The position numbers were made by a program, and so were the translations under genes. A model generated the notes under the pieces. The model searched no databases. It worked only from the letters and a program-made list of their open reading frames with translations, and was not told the origin of the DNA. Shown here piece by piece: positions 7,173-42,806 of a stretch of DNA of 64,000 nucleotides. Source of the stretch: Anaerolineales bacterium (GTDB taxonomy: Bacteria; Chloroflexota; Anaerolineae; Anaerolineales; E44-bin32); NCBI GenBank assembly GCA_035455265.1, contig DATIFK010000002.1, positions 3,436 to 67,435 on the forward strand, given 5' to 3'. Numbering within the stretch: the first letter of the stretch is position 1; each line of letters starts with the position of its first letter.

Positions 7173-7488
7173 CGTCGCCTCCGGTCGAATGCAACGCCCC
7201 CTCATCCGCAGGACGAGGGGGCGCCCGTGGTGCCACCTGCATTCGTCCTGACCCGGCGATGACGTTCGGGCTCAGGACCTCGTGCGCGCTAACGGGCGGA
7301 CCCGGCTCCCTTACGGCGATTTCGCCCCTGCGGGAGCGACGGACGGCCGACGGGGCCGCCTTTGGCGGAGGGGATGATCGCCGGTCCTCTCACCGCCTCA
7401 CACCACCCGGCGGCTCTCTGAGAGAGGCAGAGAGCGATCGTGTCTCCGCGCCTGCGTCGTTGCACGGCGCCTGGAGGCGCCTTCGCTT
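7173..7488 (-). promoter_or_regulatory. T-box riboswitch leader of serS
   Basis: On the minus strand there are an AG-bulge/distal-loop pair (CAGAGAGCCGCC GGGTGGTGTGA GGCGG) and the conserved T-box sequence AATGCAGGTGGCACCACGGG (plus coordinates 7224-7243). The antiterminator arms are CAGGACGA/TCGTCCTG, followed by the competing helix CGCCCCCTC/GAGGGGGCG. A TATAAT at 7500-7495 (minus) is the likely -10. Confidence 0.7.
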
Positions 7489-7519
7489 GAAGCGATTATA
7501 CGCGCGAGAATGGCCGTTC

Positions 7520-7594
7520 CCAGGCACCAGTTCCCAGTTCCGAGTTTCCAGTGACAACTCAACACTGGGGACTGGGAACTGGAAACTGGGAACC
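7520..7594. repeat. Heptanucleotide tandem-repeat hairpin (STRR-like)
   Basis: CCAGGCA CCAGTTC CCAGTTC CGAGTTT CCAGTG, a 9-nt loop, then CACTGGG GACTGGG AACTGGA AACTGGG AACC. It ends 3 nt from the marR-family stop. Confidence 0.85.
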
Positions 7595-7596
7595 TT

Positions 7597-8049
7597 CTAC
7601 GTGGCCTCCCGCATACCGGCCAGCAGTTGCTCGAGCAGCCGCAACAGTGTCGCCTGCTCGCTGGGGCTCAACCGGCGCAGGGCGCGGCGCCAGCGCAGAT
7701 CGAGCCGGCGCGGCACGGCCCGCAGCAGCGCCCGGCCGCGTGGCGTCAGGCGCACCGCCACGCGCCGCCGGTCCCCGGCCGACCGCCGGCGCACCACCCA
7801 GCCGCGTCGCACCAGCCGCTCGACGATGGCGGTCATCGTGGCCGCATCCTGCAGGCTGGCTTCCGCCAGCGCCTTCATCCCCACTTCACGCCGCGCCGTC
7901 GCCAGGTGGACCAGCGGAACGTACTGCGCCACCGTCAAATGGAACGGCTCCAGGTCGTCCGCCAGCTGTTGGCGCACTCTCCACCACACTTGGAGCGCCA
8001 GCGGCAGCAGCGACCGTCCCTGGCGCCCCGGCCAATTGATTCGCAACAT
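7597..8049 (-). CDS. MarR family transcriptional regulator
   Basis: 150 aa. The winged-HTH pattern is LTVAQYVPLVHLA...MKALAEASLQDAATMTAIVERLVRRGWVVRRRSAGDRRRVAVRLTPRG. Confidence 0.85.
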   Translation of the reverse strand: MLRINWPGRQGRSLLPLALQVWWRVRQQLADDLEPFHLTVAQYVPLVHLATARREVGMKALAEASLQDAATMTAIVERLVRRGWVVRRRSAGDRRRVAVRLTPRGRALLRAVPRRLDLRWRRALRRLSPSEQATLLRLLEQLLAGMREAT

Positions 8050-8064
8050 AGACTATTTATAGCA
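8050..8064 (-). promoter_or_regulatory. Putative extended -10 (TGCTATAAA) 6 nt upstream of the MarR ATG (leaderless geometry)
   Basis: The minus strand reads TGC TATAAA TAGTCT ATG (8064 down to 8047). Confidence 0.45.
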
Positions 8065-8091
8065 CGAACGATCTCGACGGCCCGGCCATGA

Positions 8092-8198: not shown

Positions 8199-9380
8199 AT
8201 GGACATCTTCGCCAAGTGTGGGGAGTTCACCGACGCCCGTCTGGCACAGGCGGCCGGGCTCTATCCGTACTTCCTGCCGCTCGAGGACACCGAAGGCACG
8301 GAGGTCGTCGTCGGCGGACGCCGTATCCTGATGATCGGTTCCAACAATTACCTGGGGCTGACCACCGATCCACGCGTGCGCCAGGCCTCGATCGACGCCG
8401 TGGCGCGCTACGGCACCTCGTGCACCGGCTCGCGCTTCCTCAACGGAACGCTCAAGCTGCACCAAGAGCTCGAGGCGCGCCTGGCGGCGTTCGTCTCCAA
8501 GCCGGCGGCGCTGGTCTTCAGCACCGGCTACCAGGTCAACCTGGGCACGATCTCCTGCCTCGTCGGCCGTGGCGACGTCGTCATTGCCGACAAGGACGAC
8601 CACGCCTCGATCGTCGACGGCTGTATGCTCGCCCTGGGCGAGCTGCGCCGCTTCAACCACAACGACCTCGCTCAGCTCGAACGCATCCTGACCGGTCTGG
8701 ACGAGAAGATCGGACGCCTGGTCGTGGTGGACGGCGTCTACTCGATGGGCGGCGATCTGGCTCCCGTCCCGCAGCTGATCGAGATCTGCCGCGCCCACGG
8801 CGCCCGCCTGATGCTCGACGACGCCCACTCGCTCGGCGTGATGGGCCACGGCCGTGGCACCGCCGCCCACTTCGGCGTGACCGACCAGGTCGACCTGATC
8901 ATGGGCACCTTCAGCAAGTCGTTTGCCTCGCTCGGTGGTTTCATCGCCGGCGACGACGAGGTCGTTCATTACATCCAGCACCACGCCCGGTCCCTGATCT
9001 TCAGCGCCTCGATGCCGGCCTCCAACGTCGCCGCCGTGCTGGCCGCCGTCGACATCATGGAGAAGGAACCGGAACGGGTCGATCGCCTGTGGGAAGTCGC
9101 CGAGCGGATGCGATCCGGGTTGAAGGCCATGGGATTCAACATGGGGCCCAGCGTCACGCCCATCATCCCCATCCGCACCGGCGATCAAGCGACCACCATT
9201 CTGGCCTGGAAGAAGTGCTTTGACGCGGGCCTGTACACCAACGCCGTGCTGGCGCCGGCGGTGCCTCCGGATGAGTGCCTGCTGCGCACCTCCTACATGG
9301 CCACGCACACCGACGAGCAGATCGACCGGGCGCTCAACATCCTGGGGGAGGTCGGGCGAGAGCTGGGACTCATCAACTAG
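8199..9380 (+). CDS. PLP-dependent alpha-oxoamine synthase, serine palmitoyltransferase-like
   Basis: Ordered motifs GSNNYLGL, GSRFLNGT, FSTGYQVNLG, DHASIVDG, DGVYSMGGDLAP, DDAHSLGV, the PLP-lysine motif GTFSKS, and SASMP. By eye it is closer to SPT than to BioF/Kbl. ATG 8199 lies downstream of the predicted promoter. Confidence 0.7.
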   Translation: MDIFAKCGEFTDARLAQAAGLYPYFLPLEDTEGTEVVVGGRRILMIGSNNYLGLTTDPRVRQASIDAVARYGTSCTGSRFLNGTLKLHQELEARLAAFVSKPAALVFSTGYQVNLGTISCLVGRGDVVIADKDDHASIVDGCMLALGELRRFNHNDLAQLERILTGLDEKIGRLVVVDGVYSMGGDLAPVPQLIEICRAHGARLMLDDAHSLGVMGHGRGTAAHFGVTDQVDLIMGTFSKSFASLGGFIAGDDEVVHYIQHHARSLIFSASMPASNVAAVLAAVDIMEKEPERVDRLWEVAERMRSGLKAMGFNMGPSVTPIIPIRTGDQATTILAWKKCFDAGLYTNAVLAPAVPPDECLLRTSYMATHTDEQIDRALNILGEVGRELGLIN

Positions 9381-9395
9381 GGGCCGGTGGTCATG

Positions 9396-9520
9396 CCCGG
9401 TTACCAGTCCCCAGTTTCCAGTTCCCAGCCTACAGGACCCGACCGCAGGACCGTCACCGCGAAGCGGCAACTGGCTACTGACCATCCATTCTGATCACTG
9501 ACCACCCACCACTGACCACT
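9396..9520. repeat. Heptanucleotide repeat arms separated by a spacer of about 40 nt
   Basis: The left arm is CCGGTTA CCAGTCC CCAGTTT CCAGTTC CCAGCC. The right arm carries ACTG-core heptads (AACTGG CTACTGA ... TCACTGA CCACCCA CCACTGA CCACT). Confidence 0.7.
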
Positions 9521-9532
9521 TCCTAAGCGCAC

Positions 9533-10519
9533 ATGGCCCCAGCCGAAACCGTTCTCGTCACCGGTGCCACCGGCTTCGTCGGCTCGAGGTTGTGCCGTGC
9601 CCTCGCCGCCGAAGGCTGCCGGGTGCGAGCCCTGCGCCGGCCCACCTCGAATCTCTCCGCCCTCGAAGGACTGCGCCTCGAGCTCATCACCGGTGACATC
9701 CTCGATCCCGAGTCGCTCGCCCGCGCCGTTCGCGGCGTCGATCTGGTCTTCCACGTCGCTGCCGAGTCGGCCTACTGGCGCCGTCCGGACGACGTCCTGC
9801 GATCGGCCGTGGCCGGGACGCGCTATATGCTCGAGGCGGCTCTCCAAGAGGGGGTGACCAAGGTCGTCCTCACCAGTTCCGTCGCCGCCATGGGCGTGCC
9901 ACTGCACGGGGAACTGCTCACCGAGGGTCACACGTTCCGTCTCCCCCAGGCTTTCTTTCCCTACGGCTACGCCAAGTACCAGTCGGAATTGACAGCCCTT
10001 CGTTTATCGGAGGGTCGCCTCCACCTAGTCATCGTCAACCCGTCCATCGTTCTCGGTCCCGGCGATCTGTATCAGATCAGCGGCTCCCTCATCACCGAGA
10101 CGGCACGCGGTCGGGCTTTCGTCTACAACGACGGCGGCGCCAACTACATCCACGTAGACGACGTTGCCGCCGGCCACATCGCCGCAGCCGCGCACGGCCG
10201 GCCCGGCGAGCGCCACATTCTCGGGGGCGAGAACCTGACGCATCGCCAGGCGCTCAGATCCATCGCCCAGATGGTCGGTGTCCGACCGCCGTGGCTTCAC
10301 CTGCCGGACGCTCTCGTCCCCGCCGCGGGCGCTCTGCTCGATGTGGCCGGCCGGTTCGTCCGCCTGCCCATGAACGGCGCGCAGATGCGCATCAGCCGTC
10401 AGCGCCTGTTCTGTGACACGGCCAAGGCTCAAGCAGAGTTGGGCTTCACTTCCACGCGGACCTTCCGCCAGGCCGCGCAAGAGGCCTATGATTGGTACCG
10501 TTCCGCCGGCATGATTTAG
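9533..10519 (+). CDS. Extended-SDR NAD(P)-dependent reductase (epimerase/dehydratase family), paralog 1
   Basis: Rossmann motif VTGATGFVGS, catalytic YGYAK (YxxxK), and NPSIVLGPGD. It is clearly paralogous to 22723-23730. Confidence 0.8.
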   Translation: MAPAETVLVTGATGFVGSRLCRALAAEGCRVRALRRPTSNLSALEGLRLELITGDILDPESLARAVRGVDLVFHVAAESAYWRRPDDVLRSAVAGTRYMLEAALQEGVTKVVLTSSVAAMGVPLHGELLTEGHTFRLPQAFFPYGYAKYQSELTALRLSEGRLHLVIVNPSIVLGPGDLYQISGSLITETARGRAFVYNDGGANYIHVDDVAAGHIAAAAHGRPGERHILGGENLTHRQALRSIAQMVGVRPPWLHLPDALVPAAGALLDVAGRFVRLPMNGAQMRISRQRLFCDTAKAQAELGFTSTRTFRQAAQEAYDWYRSAGMI

Positions 10520-10580
10520 AATGAGCATCCCGCGGGCCGGTGCTCGCGGGATTGTTCACGCAGAATCGGGCCGCGCCCGC

Positions 10581-11732
10581 ATGCCGAGCGGGTTGCGACC
10601 CAGAGCGGGAGCCGGGGTGCCTAAGGGAAAGCGTCTTCCTCCATCCACGCCGGCTACGCCAGCCTTCGTCCCGCCCTATCCACCAAGCTGGATCGACCGG
10701 CTCATGAGGTGGGTCGAGCGCATCCCCGGCCCGTTTTGGGTGGCCTACCTTGTGGCGGCCGTTGTCCTCGACCTCGCGCTGACCGCCGCTCTCTGGTCGG
10801 CAGGCACGGACCGAGCTGGAATTGTTACCCGTCTTCCTCTGTTCCTCGGCTTTGAAATCCCTGCCACTCTTGCCCTTGCTCACTACCTCAACCGGTCGGC
10901 TGCCAAGGCGCTCGATGAGTTCCGCCCCGTCCTGATCGCGACCGAGGCCGAATCCCTGACCTTTCGCTATCGACTGGTCACATTGCCACCCTCGGCGGCG
11001 CTCTGGTCAGGCATCGCCTTGCTCGTGGGCAATGTGATCATCGGCATGATGGCACCCCTTCTGGCCGGACAGCCTTCGCTCACCGCCCTCCAGGGGTTCC
11101 TTCAGCCGTTCCTTGTGGACGCGTCCAGGTCTCCGCTACCCATTGGGATCGACGTGGTTCTGCTGATCGTCTTCGCTTTGACCGTGGGAGCCGTGCTTTG
11201 GCACATCCTGCGCCAACTGGCCGTCATCAGCCTCATCTACAGCCGCCACACCAGGGTCAACCTCTTCAGGCTCGCCCCCCTGTATGCCCTCTCGCGCCAG
11301 ACGGCTCGAACCTCCATCGGACTGGTGCTCCTTTTCTCGGCGGCCCCGCTCGTCGTCCCCGAGGTGATGCGCCAGATGGGAAACCTCGTCTCTTCCGCAA
11401 TGGCCCTGCTCCTGGTGCTGGCTGTATTTATCGTGCCGTTGGTCGGCGTCCATCGGCTGCTGGATCGCGAGAAGGAGCGGCTGGTCAGCGAGAACGGGGT
11501 CATGATGGAGGCCGCCGTCGGCGAGTTGCACCGTCGCGTGACCAGCGGCAAGCTGCAGGCGATGGACGACATGAACAAAGTCATGGCCAGCCTGGAGATC
11601 GAGCGGGCGGCCCTGGTGCGGGTGCCCACATGGCCGTGGGATCCCGGGACATTGCGGACCGTGATGGCCGCCCTGTTCCTGCCCATCCTCATCTGGCTGA
11701 TCCAGTACGGATTGCAGAGGTTTCTGGGATGA
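10581..11732 (+). CDS. Uncharacterised 7-TM membrane protein, tandem paralog A
   Basis: Shares blocks FVPPYPPSWIDR, ALDEFRPVL, FRYRLVTLP, LRQL..I.LIYSRHT..NLFRLAPLYALS, GVHRLL..EKERL, MDDMNK..ASLEIE, and VPTWPWDPGTLR plus a final TM. ATG 10581 is preferred over ATG 10521 because it gives an N-terminal length like the other paralogs. Confidence 0.75.
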   Translation: MPSGLRPRAGAGVPKGKRLPPSTPATPAFVPPYPPSWIDRLMRWVERIPGPFWVAYLVAAVVLDLALTAALWSAGTDRAGIVTRLPLFLGFEIPATLALAHYLNRSAAKALDEFRPVLIATEAESLTFRYRLVTLPPSAALWSGIALLVGNVIIGMMAPLLAGQPSLTALQGFLQPFLVDASRSPLPIGIDVVLLIVFALTVGAVLWHILRQLAVISLIYSRHTRVNLFRLAPLYALSRQTARTSIGLVLLFSAAPLVVPEVMRQMGNLVSSAMALLLVLAVFIVPLVGVHRLLDREKERLVSENGVMMEAAVGELHRRVTSGKLQAMDDMNKVMASLEIERAALVRVPTWPWDPGTLRTVMAALFLPILIWLIQYGLQRFLG

Positions 11733-12898
11733 CATCCCGAAGATCTGCGCCTCCACCTCCTGCACGCAAGCTCGCTCCGACCGCCAGATCGCGGAACCTG
11801 TCTGAGCAGGCGTTCGTTCCTCCCTACCGACCCTCTTGGGTCGACCGATTCACCGACTGGGTCGATCGCCTGCCCGGGCCGGCGTGGCTTCCCTATGTCG
11901 TCCTGGCCCTGGCCGGCGCAGGCTTCTTCGTCGGCGTAGAAACGATCGCTGGCGATTATCGGCCGGGAGCCTACCTGACGCTGCACCTCTGGCTGGGGGC
12001 GGATGCCGCTTATCTTCTCGGCATGCTGCATCTGCTCGATCACGCCGCCGCCGACGCGCTGGAGGCGTTCCGCCCGGTCCTGATTCTCAACCGTTCGCCC
12101 GGCCAAGGTGCCTCGTCCGCCGGTTCGACCTTCGAAGAGATTCGCTATCGATTGACCACCCTTCCAGCCGGTCTCACCTGGGTGGCGGCGTTGCTCGGTG
12201 CGGTGCTCGGCCTGGGATTCCCGCTCGCCTTCATCCACCCGGGAGCTCCGGCCTTCTCTCTGGCGGGATCGATGGCCACCTTAGGCGTTTCAACTGTTCC
12301 GGCCGCCTCCGCCGCGATCCTCGCCCAATTCGTTGCGACGCAGGCCATCGCCGGAATCCTCGTCTACCATTCGATCCACCAGCTGCGAACGATCCACCTG
12401 ATCTATCGGGATCACTCCGGCGTCAACCTGTATCGGCTGCAGCCCTTGTATGCCTTTTCCGTGCCGTCGGCCCTCACCGCCGGCGGATGGGTGCTCTACA
12501 GCAGTCTTTGGTTCATCGCCGCGCCCAGCCTGCTGCATGAGTCCGGCAGTCTGGCGATGGCGGCCTTCTTTGTCCTGGTGGCTGGCGCGGCGTTCACCTG
12601 GCCCCTGTTGGGGATCCATCGGCGACTGCAGGTGGAGAAGAAGGCTCAGCTGGCTGAGAGCAACCAGCGATTCGAGGCGGCCGTGATCGAGCTCCGCCAC
12701 CGGTTCGACCGGCAACGGTTGACCCGGATGGACGATCTGCACAAGGCCATGGCGAGCCTCGACCTCGAGCAGACGGCCCTGCGCCGCATCCCGACCTGGC
12801 CGTGGGAGACTGGAACGCTGAGAGGGGTTATCGCCGCGTTGGTACTGCCGATCGTCATCTGGCTTCTCCAATTCGGCCTGGGAAGGCTGCTCGGATGA
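11729..12898 (+). CDS. Uncharacterised 7-TM membrane protein, tandem paralog B
   Basis: The ATG overlaps the paralog A stop (ATGA). It carries the same conserved blocks (FVPPYRPSWVDR ... IPTWPWETGTLR). Confidence 0.8.
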   Translation: MTSRRSAPPPPARKLAPTARSRNLSEQAFVPPYRPSWVDRFTDWVDRLPGPAWLPYVVLALAGAGFFVGVETIAGDYRPGAYLTLHLWLGADAAYLLGMLHLLDHAAADALEAFRPVLILNRSPGQGASSAGSTFEEIRYRLTTLPAGLTWVAALLGAVLGLGFPLAFIHPGAPAFSLAGSMATLGVSTVPAASAAILAQFVATQAIAGILVYHSIHQLRTIHLIYRDHSGVNLYRLQPLYAFSVPSALTAGGWVLYSSLWFIAAPSLLHESGSLAMAAFFVLVAGAAFTWPLLGIHRRLQVEKKAQLAESNQRFEAAVIELRHRFDRQRLTRMDDLHKAMASLDLEQTALRRIPTWPWETGTLRGVIAALVLPIVIWLLQFGLGRLLG

Positions 12899-12919
12899 GG
12901 TTGCCGTGATCTGCGACAA

Positions 12920-13015
12920 GGTCAGTCCTCAGTCGTCAGTCGCCGAGTTCAGCTGCCGCTGGCGCTAGACGGCAGGATCCTCGACGGCGGACTGAGCTCT
13001 GAGGACCTGAGGACG
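12920..13015. repeat. Heptanucleotide tandem-repeat hairpin (GTCAGTC type)
   Basis: GTCAGTC CTCAGTC GTCAGTC GCCGAGT TCAGCTG, then after a spacer GACTGAG CTCTGAG GACCTGAGGAC. It fills the gap between paralogs B and C. Confidence 0.7.
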
Positions 13016-13016
13016 T

Positions 13017-14120
13017 ATGAAACGGGCTTCGCGACGTGCCGCTCCAGCTCCCTTCGTCCCGCCCTACCCACCGTCCTGGTTCGATCGGCTCAGAGCGCGT
13101 TTGGACCGGGCCCGCGTCTCTCCCTATGTAGTGTATGCGCTCGTCGCTCTCGTCCTCTTCGTTCTACTGACGCTGGTCCAGTGGCGCGAAGGCGCGTACC
13201 CGGTGGGGGAAGTCAGGGCCTTCCACATCTTGTTTGCCGCTTGGCTTCCCTTCATGTTGGCTCTCATGCACTACCTGGACCATGTGGCCGACCGCGCCTT
13301 CGAGAAGTTCCGACCGTCTTTGTCGGCCACGCCCGACGAGAGCCTTTCGTTGCGCTACCGCCTGACGACGCTCCCGGCCGCGCCGGCCGCGCGCCTCGCC
13401 GGTGGTCTGGTGCTGGTGAACACTCTTCTGGTCCTGGTGGACAAGGGGTTTCTCCGGCCGGCGGCCGGAGCGAACGTGTTCGACCTCGGCCTGCAGCTCT
13501 TGCAGATCGCCCCGACACCTCTGTCCATCGCTGTGGTCGGCGCCCTCCTGCTTGGCGTTTGGTGGATCTCCGGAACCTTTCTGTATCACACGTTCCATCA
13601 GCTGCGTGTGATCAGCCGCATCTACGCCCGGCACACGCTGATTCGGCTCCTGCACCTCGGGCCGCTCTATAGCTTCTCCCGGGTCACACAGCAGACGACC
13701 ATCGGAATCCTTGCCTTCTTCTACATGTTCAGCCTCAGCGCCACCGGGTTCCGAAGTCAGCCCGGATTCCTCATCGCCGGCGGCATTCTCTTCGCCGCCG
13801 TCGCCGCCATTACCTTCGCCAGCCCACTGGTCGGGATCCATGACCTGCTGGTCTCGGAGAAGGATCGTCTGCTCGAGGCGAACACCCGTCGCCTGGAGGC
13901 CGGCATCGCAGACCTCCACCAGCAAATGGATCGGCGCGACCTGAGCGGCATGGACGACTTGAGCAAGGCCCTGGCCAGCCTGGATCTCGAACGGACTGTG
14001 TTGTCCCGCATCCCGACCTGGCCCTGGGAGCCGGGCACGCTGCGCGGTCTGGTGGCAGCGCTGCTCATCCCGGTCCTCATCTGGGCCATCCAGCTCGGCG
14101 CGGGACGACTGCTGCCATGA
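13017..14120 (+). CDS. Uncharacterised 7-TM membrane protein, tandem paralog C
   Basis: Carries the same conserved blocks (FVPPYPPSWFDR ... IPTWPWEPGTLR). Confidence 0.8.
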   Translation: MKRASRRAAPAPFVPPYPPSWFDRLRARLDRARVSPYVVYALVALVLFVLLTLVQWREGAYPVGEVRAFHILFAAWLPFMLALMHYLDHVADRAFEKFRPSLSATPDESLSLRYRLTTLPAAPAARLAGGLVLVNTLLVLVDKGFLRPAAGANVFDLGLQLLQIAPTPLSIAVVGALLLGVWWISGTFLYHTFHQLRVISRIYARHTLIRLLHLGPLYSFSRVTQQTTIGILAFFYMFSLSATGFRSQPGFLIAGGILFAAVAAITFASPLVGIHDLLVSEKDRLLEANTRRLEAGIADLHQQMDRRDLSGMDDLSKALASLDLERTVLSRIPTWPWEPGTLRGLVAALLIPVLIWAIQLGAGRLLP

Positions 14121-15190
14121 GCAAGCGCGCCGCCGCGGCCTCCCGGGAACCCGGGCCGCCTGCCTTCGCACCTCCCTACCCGCCGAGCCTTGTCGACCGA
14201 CTCATCGCGTGGCTCGACCGCCAGCCGGTGCCTGTCTGGCTGATTCTGCTGGCAGCCGCCGCCGTGGTGTTGGCGATCCTGACCGCCGTCCAATGGCGCG
14301 AGGGAGCGTATGCCGTCGGCACGTTCAATCCGCTCCATGCCATGGCCAGCGCCTACGTCCCATTCCTCGTCTGGCTCATCCGCTACCTCGATCGATCCGC
14401 CGCGAGCGCCCTGCAGGAATTCAGGCCCGCGCTCATGAGCGAATCCGAGGCGATGCCTTTGCGATACCGGCTCACGACGCTTCCGCGAACCGCAACGCTC
14501 TTCGTCGGCGGAGCCACGGCTTTGGCGATCGGCCTGATGGCGTGGCTGTTCTCTGCAGATTTGCGGTTGCTCGAGGTGGCTCCGACACTCTTGTCGGAGG
14601 CCGTGTTCGGCGCCGTCCTGATCGCCACCTGGTGGGCGACGGGGGTATTCGTTTACCACACGGTCCGTCAACTCGTGCTGATCCACGAGATTTACACTCG
14701 CCGCACACGCATCGACGTCTTTCAACTGACCCCGCTCTATGCCTTCTCGCACCACACGCGCCGGACGGCCGTCGCGATCCTGCTCTTTGTGTATCTGGAT
14801 TTCCTGATCGCCGACCCGACGCTCCGCTACCATCCGTTGAACCTCGGCGTCGGCGCGACGCTGGCCCTGCTCGCCGTGGTCGCCTTTGTCGGACCGCTGG
14901 GAGGAGTCCACCGCCTGCTGGCGGCCGAGAAGACGCGGCTCGTGGACGACAACGCCCGCCGCCTCGAAGCCGGGTTCCGCGAATTGCAGAAACGAATGGA
15001 CAGCCTGCGGCTTGCGGGTGCCGACGATCTGAACAAGACGCTCAGCAGCCTCGAGATCGAGCGAACGGCGCTGCTCCGCATTCCGACCTGGCCCTGGGAG
15101 CCTGGGACGATTCGCGGATTGGCGGCGGCTTTGCTCCTGCCGATCCTCATCTGGCTGATCCAGTTCGCTTTGGGTCGGTGGCTGGGATAA
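14117..15190 (+). CDS. Uncharacterised 7-TM membrane protein, tandem paralog D
   Basis: The ATG overlaps the paralog C stop (ATGA). It carries the same conserved blocks (FAPPYPPSLVDR ... IPTWPWEPGTIR). Confidence 0.8.
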   Translation: MSKRAAAASREPGPPAFAPPYPPSLVDRLIAWLDRQPVPVWLILLAAAAVVLAILTAVQWREGAYAVGTFNPLHAMASAYVPFLVWLIRYLDRSAASALQEFRPALMSESEAMPLRYRLTTLPRTATLFVGGATALAIGLMAWLFSADLRLLEVAPTLLSEAVFGAVLIATWWATGVFVYHTVRQLVLIHEIYTRRTRIDVFQLTPLYAFSHHTRRTAVAILLFVYLDFLIADPTLRYHPLNLGVGATLALLAVVAFVGPLGGVHRLLAAEKTRLVDDNARRLEAGFRELQKRMDSLRLAGADDLNKTLSSLEIERTALLRIPTWPWEPGTIRGLAAALLLPILIWLIQFALGRWLG

Positions 15191-15294
15191 GTCCGCGGTC
15201 AGGGGCCGGCGATCCGTCAGGCATCCGCCTGACCACCGAGAGACAACGCCTCGGCCCTCTCCCTTCGTACAGGTAACGCCCCCCGCAGCCGCCG

Positions 15295-15303
15295 TGGTAG
15301 GAT
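15295..15303 (+). promoter_or_regulatory. Putative extended -10 element TGGTAGGAT, 6 nt upstream of the ABC exporter start
   Basis: TGGTAGGAT at 15295-15303 and GTG at 15310. Confidence 0.35.
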
Positions 15304-15309
15304 GGCCGC

Positions 15310-17157
15310 GTGAAACCCCCCTGGGCTCGCCTGGCCGAGTGGTGGCCGTCGACGCGTGAGAAGATACGCGACGCGGCGATCAACGTCGTCCGCGCCTTTC
15401 AACTGGTGTGGCACTCGCACCCTCCGTCGGCCGCGCTGATGGCCGTCTGGACCTTGATCGGCGCGGCCTTGCCCGCCGGGCAGGCCTGGATCGGCAAGCT
15501 GATCGTCGACGCTGTGGTGGCCGCCATCCAGACTCACGTCGAGGCGATGGCCGGCCTGCGATCCGTGGCGCCCTTGCTGGCCGCCGAATTCGTTCTGCTC
15601 GTCGGGCAGGCGGGCATCAGCCAGGCGCGCAGCCTGACCGAGCACGTGCTCCATTCACGCCTCAACCTCAGCATCAACACACGCATCATCCGCAAGGCGC
15701 TTGAACTCGACCTGACGCACTTCGAGAACGCCGAGTACTACGACAAGCTTCAGAACGCCCGTCGCGAAGCCGACTGGCGCGGCCTGCAGATCGTCAACGG
15801 CGGCTTCTACCTGATTCAGAACGCCCTGACTCTGCTGTCCTTCGCCGCTCTGCTGATGCGTTTCAGCCCACTGCTGGCCGTGATCCTGTTCGTCGCCACG
15901 CTGCCGGCCTTCGTGGCGCAAAGCAGCTACGCCGATCTTACGTTTCGGGTCATCTCCTGGCGCGCTCCGGAAGCCCGCAAGCTCTCTTACCTCGAATACC
16001 TCCTGACCGACTACGACTCGGTCAAGGAAGTCAAGCTCTTCGGTCTGGGCGAACCGCTGCTGGGGCGCTACGCCGATCTGTTCTGGAAGTTCCTGCTCGA
16101 GGATCAGAGCATCGCCCAGCGCCGCAGCCTGGCCTCCTTCGGCTGGGGCCTGCTCGCCACGCTGACCTACTACGGCTCCTACGCGTGGATCGTGGTCCGG
16201 GCCGTCGGCGGGGCGATCACGCTGGGCGACATGACCCTCTACCTGGGGATCTTCCGCAGCAGCCAGCAGACCTTCGAGTCGATCTTCTTCGGGCTGAGCG
16301 AGCTCTACGAGAACGGCCTGTTCATGAGCAACCTGTTCGCCTTCCTGGAGCTGGCGCCGCAGCTCCCCGTCTCCGCTGATCCGGTTCGCCGCCTGCCGGC
16401 GAGGCGCACCGGTATCGAGTTCCAGGATGTGGCATTCCGCTACACCGGACACGACGACTACGCCGTGCGCGACATCAACCTGGTTGTCCATCCGGGTGAG
16501 AAGATCGCGCTGGTCGGGCCCAACGGCGCCGGCAAGACGACCCTCATCAAGCTGCTCACGCGCCTGTACGATCCGACGCGCGGCCGCATCCTGTTCGACG
16601 GGATCGATCTGCGCGACTACGATCCCGACTTGCTGCGCCGCCGCATCGGGGTGATCTTCCAGGACTACGTCCGCTATCACCTGACGGCGGCGGAGAACGT
16701 CGGCTTCGGCCAGATCGAAGCCCTGGGCGACCGGCCGCGCATCGAAACGGCGGCGGCCAAGAGCGGCGCCCACGACGTGATCACCGGCCTGCCCGAAGGC
16801 TACGAGACCACCCTCGGCCGATGGTTCTCCCGCGGCCGGGACCTCTCCGGCGGCGAGTGGCAGAAGATAGCCCTGGGCCGAGCCTTCATGCGCGAGTGCG
16901 ACATCCTGGTGCTGGACGAGCCGACCGCCGCACTCGACGCCGAGAACGAGCTGCTGGTCTTCCAGCGCTTCAAGCAGCTCACCGAGGACAAGATGGCTGT
17001 GCTCATCAGCCACCGCTTCTCCACGGTGCGCATGGCCGACCGTATCTACGTCCTCGACCAGGGGCGGATCATCGAGCAGGGCACCCACGACGACCTGCTG
17101 GCGCGCGGCGGCCGCTATGCGAGGTTGTTCACGCTCCAGGCGGAGTCGTATCGATAA
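15310..17157 (+). CDS. Fused TMD-NBD ABC exporter (MsbA/type I exporter-like)
   Basis: Six N-terminal TM helices. Walker A is GPNGAGKTT, the signature is LSGGEWQKIALGRAF, Walker B is ILVLDEPTAALD, and the H-loop is ISHR. Confidence 0.9.
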   Translation: MKPPWARLAEWWPSTREKIRDAAINVVRAFQLVWHSHPPSAALMAVWTLIGAALPAGQAWIGKLIVDAVVAAIQTHVEAMAGLRSVAPLLAAEFVLLVGQAGISQARSLTEHVLHSRLNLSINTRIIRKALELDLTHFENAEYYDKLQNARREADWRGLQIVNGGFYLIQNALTLLSFAALLMRFSPLLAVILFVATLPAFVAQSSYADLTFRVISWRAPEARKLSYLEYLLTDYDSVKEVKLFGLGEPLLGRYADLFWKFLLEDQSIAQRRSLASFGWGLLATLTYYGSYAWIVVRAVGGAITLGDMTLYLGIFRSSQQTFESIFFGLSELYENGLFMSNLFAFLELAPQLPVSADPVRRLPARRTGIEFQDVAFRYTGHDDYAVRDINLVVHPGEKIALVGPNGAGKTTLIKLLTRLYDPTRGRILFDGIDLRDYDPDLLRRRIGVIFQDYVRYHLTAAENVGFGQIEALGDRPRIETAAAKSGAHDVITGLPEGYETTLGRWFSRGRDLSGGEWQKIALGRAFMRECDILVLDEPTAALDAENELLVFQRFKQLTEDKMAVLISHRFSTVRMADRIYVLDQGRIIEQGTHDDLLARGGRYARLFTLQAESYR

Positions 17158-17182
17158 AGCCAGCGATCAGTGGTCGCTGGCT
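17158..17182 (+). terminator. Stem-loop immediately after the ABC exporter stop
   Basis: AGCCAGCGA TCAGTGG TCGCTGGCT forms a 9-bp stem. There is no U tract. Confidence 0.3.
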
Positions 17183-22610: not shown

Positions 22611-22646
22611 CGGATCTCTTCCTGAGGGACGGTGGCTCAAGTGTAC

Positions 22647-22690
22647 CGCTGTCGGCTGTCGGCTGTCCTCCGCCCGCTGTCCGCTGCCCG
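22647..22690. repeat. One-armed heptad run (GCTGTCG type)
   Basis: GCTGTCG GCTGTCG GCTGTCC TCCGCCC GCTGTCC GCTGCCC, in the divergent UbiA/SDR intergenic region. Confidence 0.65.
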
Positions 22691-22722: not shown

Positions 22723-23730
22723 ATGCGAGTTCTCGTTACGGGCGCCACAGGTTTCCTCGGCTCGCACATCGCCCGCGAGCTGGCCGACGTGCACGACGTC
22801 CGCGTCCTGGTTCGCCCGCAATCCTCCCGTCGCCTGTTGACCGGGATGCGGGTCGAGGAAGCCGTCGGCGATATGCTCGAGCCGGGGACGCTCGTGGAGG
22901 CGTGCCGCGGCATGGACGCCGTGGTCCACGCCGCCGCCAACATGCGCGGCGCGGGCGGTGCCGAGGCGCGCGTGGGCAGCCACACCCTCGGCGCCAGCCA
23001 CCTGGCCGCGGCCGCCCAGCGGGCTGGGGTGCGGCGGTTCGTCTACGTCTCCTCGGTCGCCGCGCTCGGAATCCCCGACGATCCCCCCTCCCCAACCGAC
23101 GCCCACGCCAGCATCCTGGACGAACGGCACGAGTGGAACGCGCCGCCGGAGATGTGGCCGTACGGCTACGCCAAGTACCAATCCGAGCGCCAGGTCCTGG
23201 CGGCCGGCGATTCGATGATGGACGTCGTCATCGTCAATCCATCCGTGGTCCTCGGGCCGGGTGATCTCCACCGCGTGTCCAACGCCATTGTCTGGTGGAT
23301 GCTGCGGGGGCGGAGTCTGCCGGTGATCGACGGCGGCGTGGGCGTGGTCCACGTCCGGGATGTAGCCGAGGGCGCACGCGCGGCGCTCGAGCGCGGCCGG
23401 GCGGGCGAGCGCTACATCCTCAGCGGTGCGAATTTGCGTGTCGTCGAGCTGCTGAACATCGTGGCCGAGGCTGTCGGTCGTCCGCCTCCGCGCCTTCGCA
23501 TCCCCTTCCACCTGGCGCGGGCGTTGGCCGAGGCAAGCGGCGGCATCGGCCGCCTGCTGCGGCCGGCGGCGCGGCCGGTCCTTGTGGAGCTGGCCGGGCG
23601 CTACTTCTACTACGACAACCGCAAGGCCCGGCGCGAGTTGGGAGTCGCTCTGGCGCGGACGGCCCTCGACGGCGCGCGCCAGGCGGCGGCGTGGTACCGC
23701 GAAGAGCAGTGGTCCGTGGCGAGTGGCTAG
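22723..23730 (+). CDS. Extended-SDR NAD(P)-dependent reductase (epimerase/dehydratase family), paralog 2
   Basis: Motifs VTGATGFLGS, YGYAKYQSE and NPSVVLGPGD. The last 8 codons are encoded by the heptad repeat. Confidence 0.8.
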   Translation: MRVLVTGATGFLGSHIARELADVHDVRVLVRPQSSRRLLTGMRVEEAVGDMLEPGTLVEACRGMDAVVHAAANMRGAGGAEARVGSHTLGASHLAAAAQRAGVRRFVYVSSVAALGIPDDPPSPTDAHASILDERHEWNAPPEMWPYGYAKYQSERQVLAAGDSMMDVVIVNPSVVLGPGDLHRVSNAIVWWMLRGRSLPVIDGGVGVVHVRDVAEGARAALERGRAGERYILSGANLRVVELLNIVAEAVGRPPPRLRIPFHLARALAEASGGIGRLLRPAARPVLVELAGRYFYYDNRKARRELGVALARTALDGARQAAAWYREEQWSVASG

Positions 23731-23797
23731 TGGCCAGAAGGGGCCTGTGGACTGACCACTGACCACTGGCCACTGACCACTGGCCACTGACCGCTGC
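23707..23797. repeat. Heptanucleotide tandem-repeat hairpin (CCACTGR type) overlapping a CDS 3' end
   Basis: The left arm CAGTGGT CCGTGGC GAGTGGC TAGTGGC CAG contains the stop codon. The right arm is GGACTGA CCACTGA CCACTGG CCACTGA CCACTGG CCACTGA CCGCTGC. Confidence 0.85.
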
Positions 23798-27101: not shown

Positions 27102-28118
27102 CTACGGCCCCGTTGGGCGCAGCCCTGCGGCCGCCTCCTGCTCCGCCAGCAGCGTCTCACGCCAGGCCTGATCCGCCGGGCGAAACCGGAGGCCAAGCTC
27201 TGTCTCGGCCTTCTTCGAAGAATACTGAAACGATACGTAACCGCTGCGAACGACCTCGGTCGAAATGAAGGCGGGCTGGCCGAAGAGGCGCAGCAGCGGC
27301 CCCAACAGGAACCCCTGGCCCAGCGCCAATGGCCTCGGCATCCACAACCCCACGGGCCTTCGCCCGAGGGTCGCCTCCCACACGCCCATCAGTTGGCGCA
27401 GCGACAGGATATGGCCGGCGAGGAAGTACGTCTCCCCGACGTGGCCGCGCTTGGCCAGGGAGGCCAGGCCGTCGGCGACGTCCTCCACGTGGGCGAAGGT
27501 GAACGTCCCCTCCGGCGCCCAGGCGATGGGAGGCATGCGCCGGCGCACGTACAAACGCGCCATGACGCCAAAGGCCGAGTGGTCGCCCGGGCCGATGACC
27601 TGAGCCGGGCAGGCGACGATCACGTCTTCGCCGGCGGCCTGGTGCCGTAGCGCCAACCGGTGGGCCTCCGTCTTCGTCTTTTCGTAGATCGAAAGCTCGG
27701 GGCTGCGCCGCTCGAACGATTCGTCGGCGATGGTCCCGCCCGTGTCCCCCAGGGCGGTCGTCGTCGAGATGTAGATCGTGCGCCGGACGCCGGCCTCGGC
27801 CGCCAGCGTCAGCGCGTGCTCGGTACCTTCGACATTGACGGCTCGCATGGCGCGGTGAAGGCGGCGTGGCACACCCAGTTCGTACCAGCCGGCTACGTGG
27901 AAGAACACATCCGGCCGGGCGACCTCGAGGGCGGCCTTGACGCTCTCGCGGGCCGTCACGTCTCCCAGCAGCAACCGCACCCCTTGGGCCGCCAGGCGCC
28001 TCGCCGCAGGGCTGTCCGGCCGGCGGGTCACGACGTACGTCTCCCAGCGGCGCGCCAAGGCCTTGTCCGTCAGGCTCCGCCCGATGAATCCGGTGCCGCC
28101 GCTGATCAGCACTCGCAT
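27102..28118 (-). CDS. Extended-SDR NAD(P)-dependent epimerase/dehydratase family protein, paralog 3 (divergent)
   Basis: Rossmann motif ISGGTGFIGRS, catalytic YEKTK, and PAQVIGPGD. Confidence 0.8.
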   Translation of the reverse strand: MRVLISGGTGFIGRSLTDKALARRWETYVVTRRPDSPAARRLAAQGVRLLLGDVTARESVKAALEVARPDVFFHVAGWYELGVPRRLHRAMRAVNVEGTEHALTLAAEAGVRRTIYISTTTALGDTGGTIADESFERRSPELSIYEKTKTEAHRLALRHQAAGEDVIVACPAQVIGPGDHSAFGVMARLYVRRRMPPIAWAPEGTFTFAHVEDVADGLASLAKRGHVGETYFLAGHILSLRQLMGVWEATLGRRPVGLWMPRPLALGQGFLLGPLLRLFGQPAFISTEVVRSGYVSFQYSSKKAETELGLRFRPADQAWRETLLAEQEAAAGLRPTGP

Positions 28119-33389: not shown

Positions 33390-33445
33390 GGTTTCCAGTC
33401 TCCAGTTGCCAGTTTCCAGTGGACTGGGAACTGGAAGCTGGGAAC
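33390..33445. repeat. Heptanucleotide tandem-repeat hairpin in a divergent intergenic region
   Basis: GGTTTCCAGTCTCCAGTTGCCAGTTTCCAGT is immediately followed by GGACTGGGAACTGGAAGCTGGGAAC. Confidence 0.85.
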
Positions 33446-33473
33446 TTGAACCCAAGGTCGGTGCAACGGCCCG

Positions 33474-40668: not shown

Positions 40669-41688
40669 CTACGCCACCGCCCACCAATCCCGGCCTTCAG
40701 CCAGATTCATTCCTTTCAGCCGGGTCCGGATGATCTCGCGTGCCCCGCGCGCTCCGACGGCGGCAAGCACGACCGTCCCGGGCGTCGCGTGCAACAGCTC
40801 CGTTAGGTCGTCGGGCGCGTGGATCGGTTTCCCCCGGCGGCTACGGCCGATCTTCACCGGATCGATGTCAATGAAAGCCAGCAACGGCGCCCCCTCGCGC
40901 ACGAGATGCTTGCCGAGTCGGCGCCCGATGGCTCCGGCGCCCCAGACGATGACCCCGGGTGCCTGCCGCAGCGGACCCTGCATCAAGTAGTGGGCCTTGG
41001 CGCGCAGGAAGTTCTCCACCGAGTAGCGCGAGTCGGTGCGCGTCGCCCGCGCCGGGTGGTCCCGCCAGGCCATCAGCGGGCGTTCGACCTTGGCGAAGCG
41101 CGCGCCGGCCAGGTGCATCCGCAGCCACAGATCGTAGTCCTCCGGCCAACCGTGATCCTGGTAGCCGCCCAAGCGATCGAGCCAGCTGCGGCGCACCATC
41201 ACCGAAGGATGGACCAGAGGGCTCTCGACGAACATCTCACGGGCGATGGCCTCTGGCGTGGTCAGCCCGTTCAACCATTCGATGTAGAGGCGAAAGCCTT
41301 CCCTGATCTCCTCCGGCGGGAACCCCTCCACCAGGCAGCCGACGGCGGCCAGGTCCGGCTCGGCCGCCAGCCGGTCCCACTGTGCCTGCAGCCGATCGGG
41401 GTAGGCGAGGTCATCGGCGTCGTGGCGGGCGATGACATCCGCCCGACAGGCCTTCCAGCCTGCGTTGAGCGCTTCGATGAGACCGGCGTGCGCCCGGCGG
41501 ACCACGCGGAGGCGCGCATCGCGCGCCGCCCACGCCTCCAGCCGACCGGCGGTGGCGTCGCTCGAGCCGTCGTCGACGGCGATCAGTTCGAGGTCGTTCA
41601 GAGATTGAGCCAGAATCGATTCGACCGCGGCGTCGACTGTCGCCTCCGCGTTGTAGCATGGCATCAGGACGGAGACGCGAGGAGTCAT
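40669..41688 (-). CDS. Family 2 glycosyltransferase with a C-terminal Rossmann-like extension
   Basis: GT-A motifs VSVLMPCYNAE, VDDGSSD and HDADD. Confidence 0.8.
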   Translation of the reverse strand: MTPRVSVLMPCYNAEATVDAAVESILAQSLNDLELIAVDDGSSDATAGRLEAWAARDARLRVVRRAHAGLIEALNAGWKACRADVIARHDADDLAYPDRLQAQWDRLAAEPDLAAVGCLVEGFPPEEIREGFRLYIEWLNGLTTPEAIAREMFVESPLVHPSVMVRRSWLDRLGGYQDHGWPEDYDLWLRMHLAGARFAKVERPLMAWRDHPARATRTDSRYSVENFLRAKAHYLMQGPLRQAPGVIVWGAGAIGRRLGKHLVREGAPLLAFIDIDPVKIGRSRRGKPIHAPDDLTELLHATPGTVVLAAVGARGAREIIRTRLKGMNLAEGRDWWAVA

Positions 41689-41835
41689 CAGTTATCAGTT
41701 ATCAGTTATCAGTTTCTTGCAGCTTCAGGGCAATCATATGACCGAAGGCCCGCGGCGGCTCAGTCGGATGATGAGAACTGACCGTGCAGGCCAGGACAGG
41801 TATTGACTGATGACTGATGACTGGTGACTGACGAC
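41686..41835. repeat. Heptad repeat arms (ATCAGTT / TGACTGA) bracketing a spacer of about 90 nt
   Basis: The left arm is CATCAGTTATCAGTTATCAGTTATCAGTTTC (41686-41716) and overlaps the GT2 start codon. The right arm is TTGACTGATGACTGATGACTGGTGACTGACGAC (41803-41835) and abuts the permease stop. Confidence 0.8.
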
Positions 41836-42806
41836 TACGTTTCCCCGAGTTTCGTTCCCTGTCGTCCGAGGCGTGGATCGAGGGCGTCCCGCAGGCCGTC
41901 ACCCAGAAGGTTGAAGCCCAGCACGGTCAGCATGATGGCGAGGCCCGGGAAGAACACCAAGTGCGGAGCGGTGAAGACCTGGTTGCGGTCCTTGCCGAGC
42001 ATCGATCCCCACTCCGGGGTCGGCGGCTGGGCCCCCAGGCCGAGGAAGGACAGCGCCGCAGCGTCCAGGATGGCGGTAGCGATGCCGAGCGTCCCCTGGA
42101 CGATCAGCGGAGTCAACGCGTTCGGCAAGACCGAACGAAACAGGATCGTCCCCATGCCGGCGCCGAGGGCGCGCGAGGCAGCGACAAAGTCGCTCTCTTT
42201 GACCGACAGCACGCTGGCGCGGACCACCCGGGCGTAGATGGGGATCGACACAATCCCGATCGCCAGCAGGGCGTTGATCAGACCGGGTCCGAGCACCGCC
42301 ACGATGGCGATCGCCAACAGAAGCGAGGGGAAGGCGAGCAAGACGTCCATGACGCGCATGATGACGTCTTCGACCCATCCGCCCAGGTAACCAGCCAGCG
42401 CGCCGAGCACTGTCCCTACCGCGATGGCGAAACCCACCGAGACGATGCCGATGATGAGCGAATAGCGCGAGCCGTAGAGCACCCGGCTGAACAGGTCGCG
42501 CACGTTGCTGTCGATCCCCATGAAGTGCTGCGGTTGGTCGCTCGGGCAGCCGAGCAGGTGGATGCACGGTGGTTGCCGCGCCCCCACAGGCTCGATTCCG
42601 ATCAGGACCTGATACGGGTCGTACGGGGCAATGTAGGTGGCGGTGAGAGCGATCAGGACCAGGGCCCCCAGCATGGCTGCGCCGACCATGGCCGAACGGC
42701 GCTGGAAGAGCCGCCGCCACGTCGTGCGCCACAGGCTGACCGGCTGGCCGGCCAGGCTTTCGGCCGGCAGAAGACGTACGCCGGGAGAGGTGCTGTCGGC
42801 CGTCAC
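41835..42806 (-). CDS. Opp/Dpp-type ABC transporter permease (DppC-like)
   Basis: The permease core is SRYSLIIGIVSVGFAIAVGTVLGALAGY...FRSVLPNALTPLIVQGTL. GTG 42806 is chosen. The upstream part of the listed 502-aa ORF overlaps the neighbouring permease and is rejected. Confidence 0.85.
   Translation of the reverse strand: MTADSTSPGVRLLPAESLAGQPVSLWRTTWRRLFQRRSAMVGAAMLGALVLIALTATYIAPYDPYQVLIGIEPVGARQPPCIHLLGCPSDQPQHFMGIDSNVRDLFSRVLYGSRYSLIIGIVSVGFAIAVGTVLGALAGYLGGWVEDVIMRVMDVLLAFPSLLLAIAIVAVLGPGLINALLAIGIVSIPIYARVVRASVLSVKESDFVAASRALGAGMGTILFRSVLPNALTPLIVQGTLGIATAILDAAALSFLGLGAQPPTPEWGSMLGKDRNQVFTAPHLVFFPGLAIMLTVLGFNLLGDGLRDALDPRLGRQGTKLGET

Follow-up and report, generated by a model that had tools for sequence, protein, structure and literature searches.

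Four tandem seven-transmembrane proteins of an Anaerolineales bacterium as a possible Chloroflexota branch of the 7TMIC superfamily

An array of four paralogous genes

The window studied, i.e. the whole stretch of 64,000 nt analysed from contig DATIFK010000002.1 (assembly GCA_035455265.1) of an Anaerolineales bacterium, contains four tandem open reading frames (ORFs), hereafter called copies A, B, C and D, which encode membrane proteins with seven predicted transmembrane (TM) helices and may belong to a branch of the seven-transmembrane ion channel (7TMIC) superfamily. All four lie on the + strand, at 10521-11732 (copy A, with an alternative start at 10581), 11729-12898 (copy B), 13017-14120 (copy C) and 14117-15190 (copy D), and scored 441, 470, 501 and 479 bits, respectively, against a hidden Markov model (HMM) of the family. 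They are co-directional, full-length paralogs with 37-48 % identity among them; copies B to D have 39-44 % identity with copy A over the full length, and 80 columns are invariant in the alignment of the four. In a database search copy D matched copy C at E = 6.8e-87, a similarity which, as judged from the sequences, is far beyond chance. The ORF listing and the alignment agree with an earlier sequence-only reading of this DNA, which had placed four + strand ORFs here and described them as paralogous end to end. The ATGA overlaps which it claimed are both present, the start of copy B overlapping the stop of copy A at 11729-11732 and the start of copy D overlapping the stop of copy C at 14117-14120. 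Because the upstream gene, encoding a short-chain dehydrogenase/reductase (SDR), ends at 10519, copy A may begin one base later, at the first possible start, 10521, instead of 10581. The gene for an ABC exporter starts 120 nt past the end of copy D.

The six motif blocks proposed earlier as common to the four proteins were all found in the alignment as described, except that copy C reads AF..FRP and not AL..FRP. The replacement of two histidines in copy D was also seen, with arginine (LIRYL and RRT) where copies A to C have histidine. Residue conservation was calculated from 322 non-redundant family members, with the numbering of copy C. H85 is histidine in 71 % of them, arginine being the second most common residue there, and the histidine of RHT has less than 85 % conservation. 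Since these positions vary across the family, copy D does not look degenerate, and its classification as a degenerate copy is not supported.

Database recognition and distribution of the family

Pfam and NCBIfam scans of the four copies gave noise only, with no Pfam match at E ≤ 1. When 73 aligned members were compared singly with Pfam, scattered coiled-coil-type noise was obtained, with DUF7030 in 7 of the 73 (best E 0.012). None of the PADLOC defence model families matched copies A to D at E ≤ 1, and the family profile found only lamin coiled-coil noise among all PDB sequences. Searches from divergent members returned no annotated relatives, just more unnamed Chloroflexota proteins. The database relatives are all unnamed or 'hypothetical', save for one automatic label from JGI, 'predicted permease'. 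The novelty at sequence level that had been suggested was thus borne out in the Pfam, NCBIfam, PADLOC and PDB sequence scans.

A profile search of 1.84 billion representatives clustered at 50 % identity identified 2,942 clusters with an E-value of 1e-3 or lower, of which 891 reached 1e-30. In a scan with one genome per species 78 family loci were found, nearly all of them in Chloroflexota metagenome-assembled genomes (MAGs) labelled Anaerolineales, Anaerolineae, Caldilineaceae or Promineifilaceae, with one locus labelled Gaiellaceae. On the evidence of these sequence searches, the family is essentially confined to Chloroflexota of the Anaerolineae type.

Members binned outside Chloroflexota were found at locus L081 (the Gaiellaceae MAG) and as proteins P0039 (Thermoproteota label) and P0292 (Bacteroidota label). 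In a distant sister subfamily from Anaerolineales and Caldilinea, tyrosine corresponds to H275 and the TWPW motif reads NWPF; the subfamily is exemplified by positions 238-1326 of locus L164 and the relatives P0303-P0330, and its hhalign probability to the family was 98 %. The sister copy of L164 adjoins a small gene whose product has a Frankia_peptide domain (PF14407).

Predicted structure, topology and residue conservation

The AlphaFold2 (AF2) model of copy C, made from a 73-sequence alignment, had a pLDDT of 91.6 and a pTM of 0.85, with helices at residues 21-31, 36-58, 68-101, 106-117, 121-144, 154-161, 168-205, 215-241, 249-305, 312-331 and 339-365. The TM helices were assigned as TM1 (36-58), TM2 (68-101), TM3 (121-144), TM4 (168-205), TM5 (215-241), TM6 (249-305), TM7a (312-331) and TM7b (339-365), TM2, TM4, TM5 and TM6 being 34, 38, 27 and 57 residues long, respectively. 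The AF2 model of the member P0263, which is approximately 25 % identical, had a pLDDT of 94.0 and a pTM of 0.86 and the same helix pattern. Both models have a TM6 of 56-57 residues and a split TM7, which in P0263 consists of helices 290-311 and 319-345. In copy C the junction of TM7a and TM7b is a loop of seven residues, IPTWPWE, in which the residues P333-T-W-P-W337 are encoded at 14013-14027 on the + strand. The six TM helices, soluble helical segment, PTWPW motif and seventh TM helix of the sequence-only reading match the model of copy C, in which PTWPW, thought earlier to look re-entrant, is a loop between two helices. TM1 is preceded by an N-terminal FVPPYPPSW segment and helix 21-31, both with pLDDT ≥ 97, which may be compared with the TM0 element of 7TMICs. 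No internal repeat among the three helical hairpins was detected with hhalign (probabilities < 1 %).

The seven TM segments had hydropathy values of 1.0-1.9 on the Kyte-Doolittle scale family-wide. In 377 aligned members the N-terminus contained on average 3.2 lysine and arginine residues (mean length 29 residues), and inner loops 1, 2 and 3 contained 4.5, 3.6 and 10.6 (mean lengths 34, 32 and 64 residues), compared to 0.4, 0.6 and 0.3 in outer loops 1, 2 and 3 (mean lengths 9, 13 and 9 residues). From this charge bias the proteins, with their seven TM helices, are predicted to have a cytoplasmic N-terminus and an external C-terminus (N-in/C-out), a topology for which the positive-inside rule is unambiguous across the 377 members. 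TM2, TM4 and most of all TM6 are predicted to project into the cytoplasm, from which the cytoplasmic helix TM7a would return to the membrane and lead, via the TWPW turn, into TM7b.

T334-W335-P336-W337 is 99-100 % conserved, P352 100 %, F267 98 %, K282 97 %, P120 and P270 96 %, and Q195, S221 and A91 93 % each. The near-universal residues are retained in all four copies. H275 is conserved in 91 % of members and replaced by asparagine in 7 %; a multi-histidine metal or heme site was dropped as a candidate, since H275 is the only widely conserved histidine. The polar residues H275, K282, Q195 and S221 are located at the predicted cytoplasmic membrane interface. Conservation peaks at residues 191-220 (TM4-5 loop), 261-331 (TM6 to TM7a) and 331-360 (TM7b). 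It is also high in the N-terminal motif PPYPPSWxDR and in the TM2-3 loop, and lowest in the cores of TM1-TM5 and the outer loops; the outer halves of TM1-TM6 are variable as well. TM7b is the most conserved TM helix, with 2.5 bits compared to 1.3-1.8 for the others; the moment of its conservation along one helical face was borderline (p = 0.08). Its outer end reads PIVIWLLQF in copy B and PILIWLIQF in copy D, and the family pattern is P-h-h-h-W-h-h-Q-x, with P352 in 100 %, W in 76 %, Q359 in 81 % and F in 14 % of members.

Comparison with the 7TMIC fold

Himmel, Moi and Benton define 7TMICs by seven TM helices, an N-in/C-out topology, outer loops that are short, a cytoplasmic anchor formed by long TM4-6 and a split TM7, and describe an N-terminal re-entrant element (TM0) which they do not use as a criterion (bioRxiv 10.1101/2023.08.30.555482). 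Conservation is stated to be highest in TM7b and in the intracellular regions of TM4-5 and TM6-7a, and the thousands of bacterial and archaeal 7TMICs typically have shorter TM4 and TM5 (same source). In the present family seven TM helices are found in the two AF2 models and in the hydropathy profile, N-in/C-out is predicted from the charges of the 377 members, the outer loops are shorter than the inner (9, 13 and 9 vs 34, 32 and 64 residues), and TM7 is split in both models. The long TM4-TM6 anchor is present in what the preprint describes as the prokaryotic form, with shorter TM4 and TM5. The published conservation pattern is also found, with the N-terminal motif and the TM2-3 loop conserved in addition. 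Altogether, the family has five of the six architectural characteristics published for 7TMICs. The profile of insect gustatory and odorant receptors (Gr/Or; Pfam 7tm_7 and 7tm_6) was not found at E ≤ 1 in the four copies or the 73 members.

A Foldseek search with the copy C model gave nothing significant (best E 0.48 in PDB and 0.19 in BFVD); AgamOR28 (8v3c_D) was at rank 32 among the PDB matches. For the P0263 model, 350,542 PDB chains were searched and the 7TMIC hypothesis was framed beforehand. The best match was Gr43a of Drosophila melanogaster (8jm9_A; E 0.04, probability 0.94, 387 aligned columns, TMq 0.30) and the second was Gr43a of D. mojavensis (8zdz_A; E 0.31, probability 0.54). ABC exporter domains ranked next, with probabilities ≤ 0.35 and TM-scores ≤ 0.21. 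True distant 7TMICs usually have poor Foldseek E-values, and annotation as ABC transporter or permease is a common confusion for them, according to the preprint (bioRxiv 10.1101/2023.08.30.555482). With TM-scores near 0.3, membership of the family in the 7TMICs is likely, short of proof. The earlier statement that the proteins match no known family therefore stands at the level of sequence, but the AF2 models and Foldseek provide a credible lead to 7TMICs at the level of the fold.

The gustatory receptor BmGr9 has an extended S2 helix and, at the extracellular end of its last helix, the S7b motif 436-TYLVILIQF-444, of which Q and F gate the pore (PMC11100771). The spacing of P352 and Q359 is seven residues, as is that between T and Q of the BmGr9 motif.

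Neighbouring genes and the corresponding loci of relatives

Upstream of the array, on the + strand, are genes for an alpha-oxoamine synthase resembling serine palmitoyltransferase (SPT; 8199-9380, Pfam Aminotran_1_2 1.2e-53) and the SDR (9533-10519), which is an HpnA-like, NAD-dependent enzyme of the epimerase/3-beta-HSD type (TIGR03466 HpnA 286 bits, cut-off 368). The ORF of the SPT-like gene opens at 8088; its start was placed at 8199 because homologs are 393 amino acids long. Among NCBIfam models this gene scored best with SerpalmtaseCFB (513 bits, cut-off 640), ahead of BioF (368) and Kbl (332). Threonine catabolism by a kbl-tdh pair was rejected as a function of these two genes, since SPT models outscore Kbl and the SDR is HpnA-like. 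Downstream, at 15310-17157 (+), is the gene for an MsbA/HlyB-like ABC exporter with fused transmembrane (TMD) and nucleotide-binding (NBD) domains (MsbA_rel 279 bits, far below the cut-off). The further flanking genes are housekeeping genes, encoding seryl-tRNA synthetase (SerRS), M1 peptidase, pyruvate:ferredoxin oxidoreductase (PFOR) and a histidine kinase. Co-transcription of the array with the SPT-like and SDR lipid genes is plausible.

Two more SDRs of the epimerase/3-beta-HSD type, at 22723-23730 (+) and 27102-28118 (-), are ≤ 13 kb from the HpnA-like SDR, against which the former scored 211 bits. Between the SerRS and SPT-like genes, an ORF of 267 amino acids at 7259-8062 (+) had no Pfam or NCBIfam match, contains two heptamer arrays (7516-7593) and is unlikely to be a gene. 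The SerRS-SPT spacer of the related locus L009 contains a MarR gene, and that of L003 an unannotated ORF on the minus strand.

Close relatives were taken as loci with an SPT 81-87 % identical to that of the window. Where the SPT-like gene has at least 81 % identity, the SDR gene always follows it, and what comes after the SDR varies. The ABC gene follows directly, with no family copy, in L097 and L098, and a PFOR-sized ORF follows, with neither copies nor ABC gene, in L104 (1,193 amino acids, minus strand) and L099 (1,345 amino acids); the ORF of L104 is equal in size to the Pfam-annotated PFOR in the syntenic L009. Two copies are present in L003, L013 and L043, three in L093, four in the window and L009, five in L042, six in L152 and approximately nine, including fragments, in L002. 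SPT-SDR(-ABC) loci with zero copies are L097, L098, L099, L102, L104 and L105, and loci with two to nine copies occur both with and without the ABC gene. Tandem amplification, as proposed by the sequence-only reading, is thus real, with 0 to approximately 9 copies at this spot in relatives.

SPT homologs with ≤ 71 % identity had neither an SDR gene nor family members nearby. At approximately 50 of 73 non-redundant genome loci the family is represented by a single gene, and there are some tandem pairs. The sole recurrent context in neighbour clustering was the SerRS-SPT-SDR-ABC-PFOR synteny of one clade, and a Pfam census of 112 genes flanking copies not linked to SPT showed no enrichment, no family occurring more than four times. 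The array had been described earlier as part of a biosynthetic/export operon; this was not upheld, as relatives have every combination of the genes and most members are single, with no recurrent neighbour. Because loci have 0 to approximately 9 copies and most members are elsewhere, the association with lipid genes is, judging from gene content, a clade-specific duplication hot spot between the SDR and the ABC/PFOR genes, and by the same comparison the family is dispensable for the SPT-SDR(-ABC) unit. In an alignment of the SDR-ABC spacer of a zero-copy locus with array-ABC spacers the sequences were too divergent to define the boundaries of the insertion.

Gene coupling and evolution of the array

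The C-terminus of family members typically ends in glycine, encoded with the stop codon as GGATGA, and the ATG of the next copy overlaps this stop, so that the ATGA overlap belongs to the duplicated unit. Consecutive ATGA-coupled runs of three to five genes are found in L031, L012 and L091. Orthologs of type C, 63-73 % identical, were found in L002, L003, L011, L091, L129 and L152, and of type D, 67-69 % identical, in L012, L016 and L152; B-type orthologs are 50-60 % identical and an A-type ortholog in L091 approximately 51 %. The partner of the C-type gene is D in the window, B-type in L002 and A-type in L091, and the array order in L152 is C, x, B, x, D, x. The proposal that the overlaps mark two heteromeric pairs is not supported, the overlap being inherent to the repeat unit, runs of three to five genes being found and the partners differing between genomes. 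By comparison of the loci, the array is a repertoire from birth-and-death duplication, not two conserved heterodimers.

Arrays of related loci also include truncated or frameshifted copies. L003 contains, at 9729-10004, a C-terminal remnant of 91 amino acids, still ATGA-coupled to the following gene, and split copies were found in L002 (17325-19865) and L031 (3602-5767). L011 has many broken copies (9992-17173), and this fragmentation may result from assembly or sequencing errors in the MAG.

Heptamer repeats

The spacer of 118 nt between copies B and C contains three GTCAGTC-type heptads and an imperfect inverted partner (12919-13006). Its folding energy is ordinary for the composition (z = -1.15), and function of the hairpin as a terminator or attenuator was rejected in view of this energy and the lack of a T-run. 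Intergenic tandem heptamers of RACTGRN type are found at 787-820, 7516-7593, 9396-9428, 9491-9520 (inside the SPT-SDR spacer) and 12921-12942, and further sites are at 22646-22690, 23751-23796, 33391-33446, 41683-41714 and 41804-41836. A three-unit heptamer pattern had 14 matches in the window, compared to 0.2 expected. The units include GACTGGA, ACTGGGA/GTTCCCA, CCCAGTT, ACTGACC and TGACTGA, some as inverted pairs. The heptad hairpin between the two gene pairs, pointed out in the sequence-only reading, is therefore present as an imperfect inverted repeat, but as one copy of a dispersed heptamer repeat it is not special to the pairs. We take these repeats to resemble the STRR heptamers of filamentous cyanobacteria, and know of no description of such heptamers in Chloroflexota. 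A different repeat, with a unit of 27 bp, is located at 63823-63971 (5.5 copies, 89 % matches, score 235) and would, if coding, specify a Gly/Met-rich nonapeptide repeat.

Discussion

There is about an even chance that copies A to D represent a Chloroflexota-expanded branch of the 7TMICs which acts, by analogy with the insect receptors, as oligomeric ligand-gated channels. The assignment builds on the architecture, the topology, the conservation profile and the ranking in the fold search, to which oligomerisation, a pore and gating would be added from Orco, MhOr5 and BmGr9/Gr43a. By this analogy the subunits would assemble via the conserved cytoplasmic anchor bundle, probably into tetramers, TM7b would line a central pore, and the variable pocket of TM1-TM6 would bind a ligand that gates the pore. 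The copies might function as homomers or mix, mixed assembly of paralogs being possible, with the pocket setting ligand specificity.

Several points weigh against the channel interpretation. No sequence link was found to Pfam 7tm_6, 7tm_7, DUF3537 or the Or/Gr chains of PDB, and the gustatory receptor motif TYhhhhhQF is matched in part, with P for T, a hydrophobic residue for Y and F in 14 % of members. The oligomeric state, the pore and the ligand are entirely inferred from insect receptors, and the channel mechanism is an extrapolation from them, because no bacterial 7TMIC has known function.

A new helical membrane fold, similar to 7TMICs by convergence and serving as a transporter, a scaffold or a sensor that docks a cytoplasmic partner on its conserved inner face, is a possible although rather unlikely explanation. 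All fold comparisons were sub-threshold (best Foldseek E 0.04, TM-scores ≤ 0.30), no library scanned gave a sequence-profile match, and the preprint, in the parts available, lists neither the conserved N-terminal PPYPPSWxDR motif nor the conserved TM2-TM3 loop as a 7TMIC feature; these results are consistent with convergence. On the other hand, convergence would have to account for the five of six published criteria, together with the agreeing conservation profile, and for gustatory receptors being the top two PDB matches of the P0263 model, as predicted.

Two explanations that involve the neighbouring lipid genes are considered improbable. In the first, the proteins would be a membrane component of the adjacent sphingolipid-like pathway, either a non-homologous N-acyltransferase (a ceramide-synthase analogue) or a protein that flips or modifies lipids in the inner leaflet. 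The latter would take the SPT/SDR product as its substrate ahead of export by the ABC protein, and its paralogs would differ in their specificity for the chain or the head group. The genes run in one direction and are tightly packed, the SDR stop lying 1 nt before the first possible start of copy A and the ABC gene 120 nt past copy D; arrays of at least three copies are found only at the SPT-linked locus; models of serine palmitoyltransferase give the best scores for the SPT-like gene, and the SDR is similar to lipid 3-keto reductases. No bCerS-like gene was found among the flanking genes scanned, and H275, K282, Q195 and S221 would place polar residues at the cytoplasmic membrane interface. 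Spt-like genes have been reported from 218 Chloroflexota MAGs, often without recognisable bCerS/CerR, and it was suggested that the missing bCerS/CerR are perhaps replaced by non-homologous proteins (Ding et al. 2024; PMC11334938). However, the close relatives with zero copies listed above retain SPT-SDR(-ABC), approximately 50 of 73 loci are single copies among whose 112 flanking genes the highest Pfam count is 4, and SPT homologs of ≤ 71 % identity occur without SDR or family nearby. H275 is asparagine in 7 % of members and tyrosine in the sister subfamily, and neither Pfam nor Foldseek showed similarity to TLC/CerS, MBOAT or other acyltransferases.

In the second, which we also rate as having little likelihood, the copies would be a bacterial chemoreceptor repertoire of Or/Gr-type channels which co-assemble, by way of their conserved anchor domains, as homo- or heterotetramers that differ in their ligand pockets. 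They would be expressed together with the sphingoid-lipid pathway of this locus and be gated by, or pass, its products or precursors. If true, prokaryotic 7TMICs would gain a physiological context and a genetic handle for the first time.

A role of the four proteins as permease-like accessory subunits of the adjacent ABC exporter is very improbable: many weak Foldseek matches are membrane domains of type IV ABC exporters, one member carries the JGI label 'predicted permease', and the array is followed by an ABC gene both in the window and in several relatives, but the ABC protein is already a complete fused TMD-NBD half-transporter, the ABC gene and the family each occur without the other, the Foldseek ABC matches have probabilities ≤ 0.35 and TM-scores ≤ 0.21, and ABC annotations are pointed out in the 7TMIC literature as a recognised source of false association.

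The odorant and gustatory receptors of insects used to be regarded as an animal invention. In 2023, a structure-based screen assigned them to a superfamily whose uncharacterised prokaryotic members number in the thousands (bioRxiv 10.1101/2023.08.30.555482). Since the best reading is a superfamily with many uncharacterised bacterial members already reported, the family is probably not of a categorically new kind. Three things appear to be new, no description of which was found in the searchable literature: how far the family has expanded in Anaerolineae-type Chloroflexota, its repertoire-like arrays of tandem genes and, in one clade, their placement with SPT-like, SDR and ABC genes. If the 7TMIC reading is correct, Anaerolineae-type Chloroflexota have a 7TMIC expansion of thousands of clusters whose behaviour is that of a receptor repertoire in eukaryotes: as many as nine genes stand in tandem, fragments occur and the gene order is reshuffled. 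In one clade the expansion is part of a small sphingolipid-like operon. It would offer concrete material for studying channel function in bacteria, including sets of paralogs for co-assembly. If the 7TMIC assignment fails, the family would still be a large, confidently folded membrane family with no Pfam model or solved relative.

Comparison with known systems

Compared with type IV ABC exporter TMDs (MsbA, TmrAB, TAP), the family similarly has long TM helices reaching into the cytoplasm, whereas those domains have six helices with the C-terminal end inside, fused to the NBD. The family has seven helices and ends outside, and no match to PF00664 (ABC_membrane) was found in the four copies or the 73 members.

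Ceramide synthases (TLC/Lag1) are, like the present proteins, multi-pass proteins with seven TM helices and several paralogs, and they act after serine palmitoyltransferase. They use a catalytic histidine, whereas the sole widely conserved histidine of the family is replaceable by asparagine or tyrosine, and their membrane topology is opposite to that of the Chloroflexota family. No Pfam TRAM_LAG1_CLN8 match was found in the four copies or the 73 members, and no CerS was among the best 50 Foldseek matches of each model.

With the bacterial and archaeal 7TMICs (Bac7TMIC/Arch7TMIC) of Himmel, Moi and Benton (2023) the family shares, by their published description, the stereotyped 7TMIC features with shorter TM4 and TM5, detection only through structure and frequent mislabelling as ABC permeases. 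In contrast, the passages available mention no tandem arrays, pseudogenised copies or SPT-like locus for Bac7TMICs, and the string 'Chloroflex' does not occur in the main text as available.

The closest comparison in structure is with Gr43a and BmGr9 (8JM9, 8ZDZ; PMC11100771). The family has in common with them seven TM helices, N-in/C-out topology, short outer loops, a TM7 made up of a cytoplasmic 7a and a membrane 7b, and conservation peaks in the anchor and 7b. A conserved glutamine near the extracellular end of 7b and a long TM2, as in gustatory receptors, are also shared, as are large, tandemly duplicated and fast-diverging repertoires. The family differs in having no detectable sequence similarity to these receptors, TM-scores of only approximately 0.3, and much shorter TM4 and TM5 without the long disordered S4-S5 loop. 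Its bacterial proteins also lack the conserved TY and F, have an additional N-terminal PPYPPSWxDR motif, and join 7a to 7b by a seven-residue turn with an invariant P-T-W-P-W.

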